Shown: in pieces, positions 41,841 to 51,014 of the stretch | How positions within the stretch are numbered: position 1 is the stretch's first letter | Layout of the letters: every line of letters begins with the position of its first letter | IMG/VR virus record: IMGVR_UViG_3300031227_000013 | DNA: 64,000 bases | Strand: one strand, 5' to 3' | Source: a virus | The notes under the pieces: generated by a model | What the model saw: only the letters and a program-made list of their open reading frames with translations | What the model was told of the DNA's origin: nothing | Databases searched by the model: none | Position numbers and translations under genes: made by a program

Positions 41841-44800
41841 TTGTTTCACATGTCAGAATTATCCACACAATTTAAACAAACTTTACAGGGATATCATAGC
41901 GGAGCATACAATTCCTACCTCCCAATGCTTCCATATCTGCAGTTAGACGGTAAGCCTATGACTCTTAATCTGCATTATCCACTGGAACCCTTCTTTAAAC
42001 TTACAATGCCTCGTAGGGTAGTGTTTATGGTGGCCCGGCAGTTGGGAAAAAGTATATCGCTTGCTTCCAGAGGTCTTTTAGACAGTGCAATGATACCTAA
42101 TTTCCATACTTTATACATTCAGCCCCGTTATGATCAGATAAAAAGGTTCTCCACTAACTATGTAGGGCCTATTATCAAGGAAAGTTACCTCGGTAGGGTG
42201 TTCGAAGACCCAACCAGAGAGCAATCTATCCTGCAGAAGAGCTTTAGAAACGGTTCTAACATGTATTTCTCGTATGCTTTCCTAGATTGTGAGCGTTGTC
42301 GTGGATTTGCGGCAGCTAAATGTTTAGCGAAAGGTACTTTGATACAGGGGACTCCTATAGAAGATTTAAAAATAGGGAGAATCCTTGAATCGGTCACTAA
42401 TGAAGGATATATTATACATAATAAAGTCCAGAGAGTTGAAAAAACAGGGGTAAGACCTTGTTTTCGTATAACTTTAAATACTGGACATACTTTAACATGT
42501 ACAATAGATCATAAATTATTCAGCGATGTAGGTTGGATAACTATAGAGGAAATGGTGACTCATGCTTTCAGAAAAACAAAGACAGATGTTGTTGGGAACT
42601 CTTCTAGGGGACGGACATTTACAAATAGGAAGTTTAAAGAAGAAAACTTGCCGTTATCAATCAGCGCACGGATGGATTCAACACGACTACAATACCCAGA
42701 AATACATAATAATGAAAAATTATTTAACTCCGAGACAATTGGGGCTGGGAGAACCACAGAAAGTCGAGAACAGGGGGTTCGGGGAATGGTCCAGTCGATG
42801 GGGCACGACAACCAATACGGATTTGTTCTTTTTACACGAACTGATACACCTCCCTGGAAAGAAAAAGAAGACGATATCTCAGGAATGGTTAGACTTGATA
42901 ACTCCCGAAGGGCTGATGTGGTGGATATGCGACGACGGGAGTTTGCGAACAAAAGATCGACGATCTATACAGATACATACCGAGGGATTTCAAAAAGAAG
43001 AGGTAGAGCTCCTTTCAAAATGGCTCTATCAAAAATTCGATATAGAAAACAATGTTGTTCCTATAAAATCAAGAAGAAATATAGGGAAATATTATTATAT
43101 TCTATGTTTATCTGTTCTAGGAACCAGAACCTGCGTGGATTTAATTCGGGAATTTACTCCGAAATGTATGAATTACAAGATAGATTATCGAAAACTACTC
43201 TGCGTAGAATGTGGGACAGAGATACAGAGCAACAACAAGACATGTTCCGAAAAATGTTTTACCGACCATCATATAAAAAGGACGGCTATTTATACTCAGA
43301 AAAACCAGAAGAGAATAAACAAAAGAAAGAGGGAATATTATGCCTCTCATCCGGAAATGAAAGAAAAGAAGAGACAATATATACAGGAGTATTTAAAGGA
43401 TCCTCAGAAAAGAGATCTCCACAATGCTACTCGAAGGAAATGGAGACATTCAAAAAAGGGAGACCCTGTATACGAACAAAAACTAAAAGAGGAACGGAAA
43501 TTTTATTATCAAAGATTGAAAGAAGATCCAGAAAAATACAACAAAAGAATAGATCATCACAATGCTTGGCGTCGAGAAAAACGAGTCAAAGGGGATACCT
43601 CCGAGACGGATTATACCAGGGAATGGAGAAAACGAAACAAAGAGAAAGTAAAGATTCAAAAGCAGAATCAGTACAAGAAATTAAAGAAACGTATGGAGGA
43701 GGATCCTCAATACAGACAGGAATTTTTAGCTCGGAAGAGGGAAAATTATCACAAGGGGAAAGAATCTCTTCAAAAGGGAAAGTGATTTCTATTGAATATG
43801 TGGGTATTAAAGATGTGTATGATATTCAAATGGAAAAACAACCTAACTTCTTTAGTAACAACATCTTAACTCATAATTGTTGCTTTGACGAGATTTCTGA
43901 CATACAATACGACTTTATTAGTACAATAGGTGAGGTTTTAAGTGCCCAGACCGAATATGGATTTTATCAGTTTACCGGAACCCCTAAAACTATCGATAAT
44001 ACGCTGGGTGTTCTGTTTTCAGACAGCTCTCAGGCGGAATGGATCATCAGATGTGGGTGCGGTAAACATAATATACCTAGTCTGGACCATGATTTATTAC
44101 GGATGATAGGAAAGAAGACCTGTATCTGCGCTAATAAGAAATGCGGTAAGCCTCTGGATATAAGTACAGGAGAATATGTGCATGCGTACCCCGATAGACA
44201 GCATTCGTTCGCCGGATATCATTTATCGCAGATAACACACCCTCTGCATGCTGAATTTCCTCTTAAATGGAGTGAGATGCTTTATAAGAGGTCTACTTAT
44301 CCGGAAGCTAGATTTAATAACGAGGTATTAGGGGTCCCGTGTGATGAAAATGTTAAACCTCTGACAGTAATGCACCTTAAACAGGCTAGTAACGGGCTTA
44401 TCAATGATTACTCCAAGGCTGTTAAAGAACGTAAGAAGTACGATGCTGTAGTTATGGGAGTGGACTGGAGTGGATACGGTGCAGATAGTATATCGACAAC
44501 GACAGTAGCTGTAATAGGTATAATACCCGGAAGCGAAACGGTACACTGTATATATGCTGAGAGATTTAAAATAGGGATAAAACCAGAAGACGAAGCTAAG
44601 AAACTTATTGAATATGCTTACCAGTTCGAGATAACATATTTTGCACACGATTTTTCAGGGGCTGGAATGATAAGGGAAGCCACAATAGTCCAACGGGGAT
44701 ACCCCGTGGAGCAAATAGTACCCTTCCAAATCGTCCACGCCCCTGTTAACACTAGTATCATCAACTTCTACCAGCCCGCAAATGGTGGTAGAAGTTGTTA

Positions 44801-45143
44801 CAATATAGATAAGACCCGTTCTTTACTGGTTCTGTTCGAAATGATTAAGAAACAGCAGGTAACTCTTCCCGACTGGGAAAAGAACGACGGGAAGACTAAG
44901 GATGTATTGAGTGATCTGCTGAATATAATGCAGGAGACGAGAGAAACTCCCCGCGGTAAGGATTATACCCTTATGATTAAAGTCCCTAACAAAACAGATG
45001 ACTTTGCTTTCTCTCTTAATCTAGCCTGTTCCGCTATCTGGCATATTAGGGGCAGGTATCCGTCGCTGGTTACCAGTGTACAGGGTCCTTCCTACGAGGA
45101 TATGGCACTGGCTGACCCGCATCTAGCTAACTGGGATGTATAA
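41841..45143 (+). CDS. terL: Terminase large subunit (GpA-like) containing an intein; about 580 aa after splicing
   Basis: ARQLGKS Walker A, spliced RGFAAAK/CCFDEI Walker B, TGTPK, nuclease VMGVDWSG and DDFAFS. Confidence 0.88.
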   Translation: MFHMSELSTQFKQTLQGYHSGAYNSYLPMLPYLQLDGKPMTLNLHYPLEPFFKLTMPRRVVFMVARQLGKSISLASRGLLDSAMIPNFHTLYIQPRYDQIKRFSTNYVGPIIKESYLGRVFEDPTREQSILQKSFRNGSNMYFSYAFLDCERCRGFAAAKCLAKGTLIQGTPIEDLKIGRILESVTNEGYIIHNKVQRVEKTGVRPCFRITLNTGHTLTCTIDHKLFSDVGWITIEEMVTHAFRKTKTDVVGNSSRGRTFTNRKFKEENLPLSISARMDSTRLQYPEIHNNEKLFNSETIGAGRTTESREQGVRGMVQSMGHDNQYGFVLFTRTDTPPWKEKEDDISGMVRLDNSRRADVVDMRRREFANKRSTIYTDTYRGISKRRGRAPFKMALSKIRYRKQCCSYKIKKKYREILLYSMFICSRNQNLRGFNSGIYSEMYELQDRLSKTTLRRMWDRDTEQQQDMFRKMFYRPSYKKDGYLYSEKPEENKQKKEGILCLSSGNERKEETIYTGVFKGSSEKRSPQCYSKEMETFKKGRPCIRTKTKRGTEILLSKIERRSRKIQQKNRSSQCLASRKTSQRGYLRDGLYQGMEKTKQRESKDSKAESVQEIKETYGGGSSIQTGIFSSEEGKLSQGERISSKGKVISIEYVGIKDVYDIQMEKQPNFFSNNILTHNCCFDEISDIQYDFISTIGEVLSAQTEYGFYQFTGTPKTIDNTLGVLFSDSSQAEWIIRCGCGKHNIPSLDHDLLRMIGKKTCICANKKCGKPLDISTGEYVHAYPDRQHSFAGYHLSQITHPLHAEFPLKWSEMLYKRSTYPEARFNNEVLGVPCDENVKPLTVMHLKQASNGLINDYSKAVKERKKYDAVVMGVDWSGYGADSISTTTVAVIGIIPGSETVHCIYAERFKIGIKPEDEAKKLIEYAYQFEITYFAHDFSGAGMIREATIVQRGYPVEQIVPFQIVHAPVNTSIINFYQPANGGRSCYNIDKTRSLLVLFEMIKKQQVTLPDWEKNDGKTKDVLSDLLNIMQETRETPRGKDYTLMIKVPNKTDDFAFSLNLACSAIWHIRGRYPSLVTSVQGPSYEDMALADPHLANWDV
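42321..43877 (+). mobile_element. Intein (519 aa) inserted just before terminase Walker B
   Basis: Block A CLAKGT, block B LTCTIDHKLF, block F VISIEYVGIKDVYDIQM, block G NFFSNNILTHN followed by +1 Cys. Confidence 0.92.
42562..43785 (+). CDS. LAGLIDADG homing endonuclease with Zn ribbon and basic helical tail, in the +1 frame inside the intein
   Basis: LLGTLLGDGHL and GLMWWICDDGS motifs, IHTEGF; CVEC...CSEKC; K/R/E/Y-rich repeats. Confidence 0.9.
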   Translation: MLSEKQRQMLLGTLLGDGHLQIGSLKKKTCRYQSAHGWIQHDYNTQKYIIMKNYLTPRQLGLGEPQKVENRGFGEWSSRWGTTTNTDLFFLHELIHLPGKKKKTISQEWLDLITPEGLMWWICDDGSLRTKDRRSIQIHTEGFQKEEVELLSKWLYQKFDIENNVVPIKSRRNIGKYYYILCLSVLGTRTCVDLIREFTPKCMNYKIDYRKLLCVECGTEIQSNNKTCSEKCFTDHHIKRTAIYTQKNQKRINKRKREYYASHPEMKEKKRQYIQEYLKDPQKRDLHNATRRKWRHSKKGDPVYEQKLKEERKFYYQRLKEDPEKYNKRIDHHNAWRREKRVKGDTSETDYTREWRKRNKEKVKIQKQNQYKKLKKRMEEDPQYRQEFLARKRENYHKGKESLQKGK

Positions 45144-45154
45144 AGGAAAATAAT

Positions 45155-45418
45155 ATGAGTGAAGTAAAGATAGTGTGTGGGGACGAAGAATTAGTAATAG
45201 GTGATGTTCTGGATACAGTTGTCGTATACAGTAAAGATAATAAGGATAATGAGATATGGTTCCAGACACGCTGTAAGGATTATTATAAGAAGGAACATAC
45301 AGAGGAAGGTTACGAAAATATGATAGTCATTGAATTTGATAAAAGATTCTGGAAGAATAAAGATGTATTAAAACAAGTCGAAGATAAATTCGGAATAGAT
45401 AAGGTGGTAGATTTATAA
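45155..45418 (+). CDS. Hypothetical protein
   Basis: SD AAGGA; follows terL. Confidence 0.7.
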   Translation: MSEVKIVCGDEELVIGDVLDTVVVYSKDNKDNEIWFQTRCKDYYKKEHTEEGYENMIVIEFDKRFWKNKDVLKQVEDKFGIDKVVDL

Positions 45419-46407
45419 TGAAAATAATATCTGAAGAAAGAATAAATGTTCCGACAAACGCCTGTCATGCAGCATCTATTGTATATTATGAGGGAAAGAA
45501 AATAACAGCATGGTTCGGCGGGGAGAGAGAAGGATACCTCTGCTGTATCTATACAAAGGTGGATAATAATCCTATACAGAGAACTTTCAATCCATCGTCG
45601 AGAGGCAGCTCCTGCTGGAACCCTGTTCTATTCACACATAACGATAAATTGTATATGTTTATGAAGGATGGAAGATTCTGTGACTGCTGGCAGACAGTTC
45701 TGTTTACGCTGGAGTTAAAGGGCGGGAAAGTTGTCCCTAAAGATTATATAATGTATCCCGCAGGATTCAACGGCTGTGTCAAGACGAAGCCTATTTTTAA
45801 AGGCAATATGATGGTATGCGGATCGTCCGTGGAAACTGCTATGAACTGGACATCCTATATAGAGGCTTATAAGGAGCCCTTCAACGACTTTAAGGGTAGA
45901 AGGCGCTCTAACCCTATAATTGGACCAATCACCTCTCAGGGGCTGTTACAGCCCGCTATATGGTATGCTGATGAAAAGTACCATGCATTAATGCGGAGTT
46001 CCCGGGATCTTCCATGTATATATTACAGCTCTTCCAGTAATCTATATAACTGGGATAAAGCTGTTCCTACAGATGTAATGAATCCTAACAGCTCTATCGA
46101 TGTCGTCCACCACAGTTCCGGAAAAACATATCTGGTATGTAATCCGGATAGTAGAAACCGGTGTCCTCTGTCTCTGATGGAATTTACTGTTATACTAAAA
46201 AAAGGATTAGTTCTTAAGAAGATGCGGGCTGATCTGGATATAAAAGAAAGTATTGTTATAGACGACGATACTTCAGATACATTCTATCCGGACGCTGTCA
46301 GCAGAGAACTGTCGTATCCTTTCGCCATAGAGAATCCGGACGGGAATATAGAAGTCGCGTACACGTACCACCGTTCGGAAATACGTGTAGCGACTATCAA
46401 ATGTTAA
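45418..46407 (+). CDS. BNR-repeat/sialidase-like beta-propeller protein
   Basis: CHAASIV...AWFGGEREG, WNPVLF, LLQPAI, MRSS, Asp-box-like SSSNLYNW, NPNSSID, RCPLSL, LSYP. Confidence 0.75.
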   Translation: MKIISEERINVPTNACHAASIVYYEGKKITAWFGGEREGYLCCIYTKVDNNPIQRTFNPSSRGSSCWNPVLFTHNDKLYMFMKDGRFCDCWQTVLFTLELKGGKVVPKDYIMYPAGFNGCVKTKPIFKGNMMVCGSSVETAMNWTSYIEAYKEPFNDFKGRRRSNPIIGPITSQGLLQPAIWYADEKYHALMRSSRDLPCIYYSSSSNLYNWDKAVPTDVMNPNSSIDVVHHSSGKTYLVCNPDSRNRCPLSLMEFTVILKKGLVLKKMRADLDIKESIVIDDDTSDTFYPDAVSRELSYPFAIENPDGNIEVAYTYHRSEIRVATIKC

Positions 46408-50738: not shown

Positions 50739-51014
50739 TTAGTCATCCCATTCAATATGGTCTTCATCAACCTTGACTATCTCGGTAAGGAAGTAATGCA
50801 TATCGAAATTATCCATCATTGTACTTCCTCGAATGTGATCTTTATGATTCTTTATATCCCAGGGCATATCATAATCCATATCTTCCTTTAGGATTCCCTT
50901 GGCGACATTGATATGATCATAAATCATATTTAACTGCTCATTATTCAAATATTTTTTCTGTATTATAAATGAACTGCTCGAGCTGTTACTTACAAATCCT
51001 CTTCGATTCTTCAT
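50739..51014 (-). CDS. GFVSNSSSSSF-family protein
   Basis: MKNRRGFVSNSSSSSFII. Confidence 0.85.
   Translation of the reverse strand: MKNRRGFVSNSSSSSFIIQKKYLNNEQLNMIYDHINVAKGILKEDMDYDMPWDIKNHKDHIRGSTMMDNFDMHYFLTEIVKVDEDHIEWDD

Follow-up and report, generated by a model that had tools for sequence, protein, structure and literature searches.

The large terminase gene (terL) of this phage raises the question of how a single continuous open reading frame (ORF) can accommodate an intein together with a homing endonuclease written in a different frame, and what keeps both frames open. The window, i.e., the whole stretch of 64,000 nucleotides analyzed here, corresponds to the minus strand of positions 50901–114900 in a virus record of 185,256 bp that is complete and bears direct terminal repeats (IMGVR_UViG_3300031227_000013). 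Its terL product matched the large-terminase family phrog_675 (E = 3.3e-41), and terL gave a single match within the phage's own complete 185-kb genome, making it the only terL there. Zero matches were returned when GenBank phages were searched with terL by blastn, and zero loci when IMG/VR was searched with the C-extein as a single sequence. The gene directly 3′ of terL, at 45418–46407, is BNR_2 (sialidase-like repeat) according to the precomputed Pfam list for identical contigs. The terL ORF and the intein parts read in its frame are as follows (here and below, a slash within a motif marks an insertion junction).

41841–45143, + strand: terL precursor (large terminase), 1100 codons with frame 0 open; likely start at ATG 41850
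42321–43877, + strand: class 1 intein, 519 codons in the terL frame, inserted at AAK/CCFDE
42321–42590, + strand: first piece of the intein N-lobe, residues 1–90 (AF2 model: pLDDT 74–85, beta strands)
42852–43769, + strand: terL-frame spacer, intein residues 178–483; stop-free, otherwise unconstrained, predicted disordered
43770–43877, + strand: intein C-lobe (blocks F and G), ending in His-Asn (AF2 model and alignment: pLDDT 80–87, strands at 484–504)

Pfam family PF14890 (Intein_splicing) matched terL residues 191–679, and the sequence features of a class 1 intein are all present: Cys1, T61-I-D-H64 in block B, H518-N519, and the +1 Cys of CCFDE. The block-B His is substituted in several relatives. 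An AF2 model of the intein in the terL frame was confident at residues 1–90 and 480–505, with the middle mostly at pLDDT of about 30. It aligned to the NpuDnaB mini-intein (4o1r) with Z = 14.4 and an rmsd of 1.8 over 126 residues, giving a predicted HINT fold, and 26 intein/Hint chains matched it at Z ≥ 8. Because terL is single-copy and essential, we infer that the intein splices itself out of the precursor.

Between the splicing blocks, the +1 frame encodes a second protein on the same strand, as the sequence-only reading had described.

42562–43785, + strand: homing endonuclease gene in the +1 frame, from ATG 42562 to TGA 43785, 407 aa
Endonuclease residues 1–210, LAGLIDADG core; 214–232, four-Cys zinc ribbon; 233–407, basic helical tail (I-SceI-like, double-motif)

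The product matched PF03161 (LAGLIDADG_2) over residues 7–169 with 84.8 bits, against a curated cut-off of 25 bits, and also phrog_11023, "homing endonuclease with LAGLIDADG motif." Its two LAGLIDADG motifs, each with a catalytic acidic residue, are LLGDG (D17) and WWICDDG (D124/D125), and G16-D17-G18 and D124-D125-G126 were invariant among six sequences. Three of the four zinc-ribbon Cys were invariant across the aligned endonucleases, with all four present in the window's copy. An AF2 model built from six sequences only had a mean pLDDT of 83.5, and its best solved Foldseek matches were I-SceI structures (5a0m, 3oor, and 1r7m; TM 0.74–0.76, E about 1e-12). For 5a0m_A the target TM was 0.76 with E = 4.6e-12 and 24% identity, which predicts a monomeric double alpha-beta-beta-alpha-beta-beta-alpha fold. 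Judged from these models, the lineage is that of intron-type or free-standing LAGLIDADG enzymes, not the intein type (PF14528). Conservation in this frame was of the coding type: nucleotide conservation ranked position 2 > position 1 > position 3, and amino-acid identity was 0.23–0.45 vs. 0.12–0.25 in the terL frame, about twofold higher, in all pairs of compared terL loci.

Over the length of the endonuclease ORF the terL frame contained 0 stops, as the sequence-only reading had also stated, vs. 27.4 ± 3.3 expected from 20,000 synonymous-codon shuffles of the endonuclease ORF (shuffle minimum, 14). Among the 152 endonuclease codons that precede AA, AG, or GA, not one ends in T, compared with 95 of 255 elsewhere, and the third forward frame across the same ORF held 31 stops. 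In 21 other window ORFs read in the same relative frame, 973 stops were observed and 971 expected (obs/exp 1.00), so the null is calibrated and such stops are not generally avoided in this phage. The open terL frame over the endonuclease is held by selection; since a frame-0 stop would destroy the terminase, selection purges T-ending endonuclease codons before AA, AG, or GA. The shuffle comparison thereby bears out the proposal, made from the letters alone, that the open frame reflects selection for dual coding.

The same locus could be read as an assembly or sequencing artefact, two compensating indels having disrupted a canonical in-frame intein. That reading is already refuted. The 4.3-kb locus DNA is identical in the independent Logan (SRR7528420), ENA (ERZ27316110), and JGI assemblies, an identical protein is encoded on 22 contigs, and the layout is common to more than 40 independent loci. 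Errors, moreover, would not erase about 27 stops from a second frame, in line with the earlier argument against compensating errors.

Homologues of the terL exteins (33–71% identity) fell into two groups, one with an empty site and the other with an intein carrying a long basic "filler" at the Walker-B motif. The site is empty in P0007, P0008, and P0022. Five of the six fetched terL homologues (L004, L005, L006, L008, and L009) carried a +1-frame LAGLIDADG ORF of 356–455 codons, with 0 terL-frame stops each vs. 9.5–20 expected. The sixth, L007, has a shortened intein in which the +1-frame LAGLIDADG remnants are broken by many stops while the terL frame is intact. L007 represents the decay stage expected of a homing element, and it shows the terL frame to be the indispensable one. 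Two of these terL homologues, L004 (1501–5979) and L005 (1501–6009), hold extra inteins whose in-frame endonucleases are canonical and match PF14528 (LAGLIDADG_3), faintly in the case of P0006 of L005; one lies at the P-loop, GK/C, in L004 and one in the zinc-finger region in L005. One terL can thus house both intein types.

The window intein (AAK/C ... HN/CCFDE) lies five codons upstream of the DE/x site used in all relatives examined, and the usual site in the window is empty (DE-ISD). Given that the splicing domains of the window and its relatives are homologous by alignment, the shifted site indicates transposition to a neighboring site, probably within one recognition sequence. The window extein is closest to that of L004 (71%) and its endonuclease to that of L005 (45–50%), whose extein is 49% identical. 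This discordance and the empty sites fit horizontal movement.

It had been proposed that the endonuclease ORF begins where the N-terminal splicing domain ends and that the terL frame beneath it is a motif-less filler. The first claim did not hold, since the ORF begins inside the N-lobe and intein residues about 128–177 lie in the overlap; these residues correspond to the following candidate feature.

42702–42851, + strand: candidate doubly constrained segment, about 50 codons; intein residues 128–177 in the terL frame, endonuclease residues 48–97 in the +1 frame

Among 15 loci, and against a null in which the protein sequence, codon usage, and stop avoidance of each endonuclease were preserved, terL-frame identity was in excess in the blocks starting at residues 128, 148, and 168 (z = 8.9, 11.2, and 4.6), the remaining blocks having z ≤ 3.2 and mostly near 0. 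Read in the terL frame, the segment shows an h-x-R-V-R motif, hydrophobic and strand-like, and after it an E-x-R-L-R-x-L helix. In the AF2 intein model, pLDDT rises to 61–82 over residues 141–170, with a helix predicted at 146–160 and a strand at 169–172, and model residues 1–175 can be aligned with the Npu DnaE N-fragment (IntN). The decayed copy L007 retains exactly segment 128–177 and loses what comes after. The filler description therefore stands for residues 178–483 and fails for about 128–177, which are conserved beyond the null: past residue 177, a conservation z of about 0, pLDDT of about 30, and deletion in L007 rule out a function for the spacer. A second candidate site of double constraint, at the second LAGLIDADG motif, was also dropped. 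Its excess (z = 5.9) fell to z = 1.1 once stop avoidance was included in the null, and is thus a by-product of that avoidance. Structure prediction and conservation statistics together leave roughly even chances that 42702–42851 is under protein-level selection in both frames, in which case it would complete the HINT N-lobe as a helix-strand element and also contribute to the LAGLIDADG core, in its first half. The intein and the endonuclease gene would then be physically interlocked, such that the endonuclease could decay by point mutation and not be cleanly deleted. An interlock of this kind would explain why L007-type copies keep the segment and why the overprinted state persists across deep divergence.

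The window's own version of the terL-frame motif is divergent, with a 6-codon insertion. Together with the unusual insertion site and the decay seen in L007, this would suit a recently inactivated endonuclease, a relic within an intein inherited vertically and under selection in the terL frame only. We regard a relic as unlikely, given that the ORF is intact over 407 codons, where a neutral +1 frame of equal length would be expected to hold about 7 stops, that no residue invariant in the family has been lost (both catalytic motifs and the four Cys are there), and that the endonuclease fold is predicted with confidence. Even with an intact ORF the enzyme of this particular phage could be inactive. 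We favor with high confidence an intein that is mobile and has its homing endonuclease encoded by a distinct gene overlapping it.

Under this mobile-intein reading, ribosomes in frame 0 on terL would produce the 1100-aa precursor. A HINT domain would assemble from three pieces (residues 1–90, about 128–177, and 484–519) separated by disordered spacers, and excision of the intein would restore the Walker-B region (AAK-CCFDE) of the phage's only terminase. ATG 42562 would serve other ribosomes as a +1-frame start for the 407-aa I-SceI-like LAGLIDADG enzyme, with its zinc ribbon and basic helical tail. The endonuclease would be expected to cut intein-free terL alleles during co-infection, and repair would then copy the whole element in. 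Three short signals bear on how the endonuclease might be translated.

42546–42549, + strand: Shine-Dalgarno (SD)-like GAGG, 12 nt 5′ of the endonuclease ATG; equal spacing in L004 and L005
42556–42558, + strand: +1-frame TGA stop, two codons before the endonuclease ATG
43776–43782, + strand: GGGAAAG heptamer, in phase, just before the endonuclease stop; 4 such heptamers in the window's ORF

Over half of the genes of this phage are preceded by AGGAG-like motifs, whose first base mostly lies between −9 and −14. Since the GAGG of the endonuclease is farther from its ATG than in most of these genes, initiation at ATG 42562 is plausible but probably weak. A search for sigma-70-type promoters inside terL found no enrichment (8 sites vs. 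10.6 expected), and the phage motif CTTAA-N15-TGGCA was absent near terL. The sequence-only reading had held that the arrangement allows endonuclease expression independent of the late terminase; the promoter-like sites give this no support, the only signals of its own being the ATG and the SD-like GAGG.

Programmed frameshifting offers another route between the frames: a +1 shift near 42560 and a −1 shift at GGGAAAG would place the endonuclease in frame within a canonical intein, or else fuse it to the C-lobe and C-extein. An in-phase X_XXY_YYZ heptamer does stand immediately 5′ of the endonuclease stop. The heptamer is found at the ORF end in 0 of 15 relatives, which rejects it as a conserved frameshift site, and its presence at 43776–43782 is probably due to chance. 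At the other end, with the +1-frame TGA two codons 5′ of the ATG, there is hardly any stretch in which ribosomes could move from the terL frame into +1. Obligatory frameshifting would also make a stop-free terL frame needless, yet the frame is stop-free in every relative and is still open in L007 after the death of the endonuclease frame. Frameshifting is therefore very improbable, and internal initiation at ATG 42562 is the route that we infer.

How widespread this layout is was assessed with an IMG/VR census, for which an alignment of six endonucleases served as the query and 74 loci were returned. In 38 of these a longer ORF on the same strand but in a different frame encloses the endonuclease, and all 38 have 0 host-frame stops. 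Another 20 have the endonuclease in frame within a long ORF, in 14 it is apparently free-standing, and in two it faces an open antisense frame. Free-standing relatives also occur in a named phage, Bacillus phage BpSp, whose gp156 is a related endonuclease encoded as a separate 229-aa ORF. Six in-frame loci were sampled: four (L032, L050, L058, and L061) matched the Pfam intein-splicing family, with ResIII and SNF2 helicases and an RNA ligase as hosts, and the match was absent in the other two (L075 and L083). At L075 (3318–5231) an in-frame LAGLIDADG_2 domain, without an intein match, is fused with HTH_7 and the start of an N6/N4 DNA methylase; this locus may represent a different kind of endonuclease insertion.

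Hosts of the overprinted copies are terL, DEAD/HHH helicases, and ResIII-type helicases. Intein blocks flank each copy, and the junctions, wherever they could be located, are at Walker B (hhhDE/C or S ... HN/C). The offset of the overprinted frame is +1 in terL and some helicases and +2 in one helicase clade. The latter includes gp40 of the cultured Xanthomonas phage FoX3 (MT161383.1, 26902–29268; "putative DNA helicase"), which has an intein at DE/CH and a LAGLIDADG ORF at offset 2, both absent from its GenBank annotation; its host frame, too, is free of stops. In a tree of 67 endonuclease cores, the window falls in a 17-member clade, all overprinted at +1 (SH-aLRT 97), and the +2 group forms an 11-member clade (SH-aLRT 98). 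The four layout states require 8 changes on this tree vs. 35 with shuffled labels. From these well-supported clades and the low number of changes, the overprinted state is old and stable, which counts against the earlier suggestion of a transient intermediate.

The phage itself carries a second member of the family. At 161559–164816 of its genome, outside the window (L003; G000:C1), an RNA polymerase beta/beta′-like ORF with a 2009-aa open frame contains an intein-like insert (KRIG/C ... VSN/S) with an in-frame PF03161 LAGLIDADG domain, 38% identical over 80 aa to the one in terL. One phage thus holds the in-frame arrangement in its RNA polymerase gene and the overprinted arrangement in terL.

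The sequence-only reading presented this layout as a new, third arrangement beside in-frame and fractured inteins, but layouts of this kind have already been published. Gosselin, Arsenault & Gogarten (bioRxiv 10.1101/2025.01.02.630785) described actinophage inteins, terL included, with the endonuclease outside the intein frame. Their cases were an antisense LAGLIDADG, an antisense Vsr-like, and a same-strand, frame-3 endonuclease VII-like gene, and they proposed that such inteins arose when a free-standing endonuclease invaded an intein. The antisense LAGLIDADG of Synechocystis dnaX was first reported by Gorbalenya (1998), as cited in that preprint. A preprint of September 2026 (bioRxiv 10.64898/2026.09.14.751524) is titled [quoted passage not shown]; its text contains the word LAGLIDADG and not "terminase." Going by that title, its endonuclease is likewise out of frame, but its host is the cellular dnaX, not a phage terL.

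Like the inteins of Gosselin et al. (2025), the window's has an endonuclease ORF between the splicing blocks in another frame, an uninterrupted intein frame whose middle is without recognizable structure, terL among the hosts, and an endonuclease related to free-standing ones (the 14 of 74 loci above and BpSp gp156). It differs in being a same-strand, +1, I-SceI-like LAGLIDADG gene in a 185-kb uncultured phage, where theirs on the same strand was only endonuclease VII-like and LAGLIDADG was antisense, and in that part of the overlap appears constrained in both frames. Canonical LAGLIDADG inteins of the PI-SceI type (PF14528) similarly join a HINT splicing domain and a LAGLIDADG endonuclease in one homing unit, but their PF14528-type domain is in frame, whereas the window's is a PF03161 protein read in another frame between a start and a stop of its own. 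Fractured genes have been described (Dassa et al., 2009, cited through bioRxiv 10.1101/2025.01.02.630785) in which split inteins flank an endonuclease that stands free; they likewise have a stand-alone endonuclease gene in the intein slot. In that description their host is cut into two ORFs; terL is one continuous 1100-codon ORF and is neither a fractured gene nor a split intein. The ShiLan insertion (PMC11855218), an HNH gene hidden out of frame in an intein-free phage methylase, also places an out-of-frame endonuclease within an open host ORF and shares the question of how the hidden gene is translated. It has no splicing domain, unlike the window insert with its flanking intein blocks, and is presumably retained in the protein of its host gene.

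The layout is real, selected, and widespread, occurring in dozens of uncultured phages. Added here are the size and age of an I-SceI-like family, the coexistence of three configurations, the shifted insertion site, and a candidate two-frame segment. Few natural examples of a long (1.2 kb) overlap between genes on one strand are as clean as this one, and it is plain why the second frame stays open, in that an essential gene has to be read through it. Gene callers and intein surveys systematically miss overprinted endonucleases, to judge from the census (e.g., the FoX3 helicase). The presence of free-standing, overprinted, and in-frame members within one endonuclease family bears on how inteins gained their endonucleases and supports the view of "splicing first, endonuclease captured later." The putative doubly constrained segment and the five-codon site shift offer experimental handles on what an intein tolerates and on how it reaches new sites.
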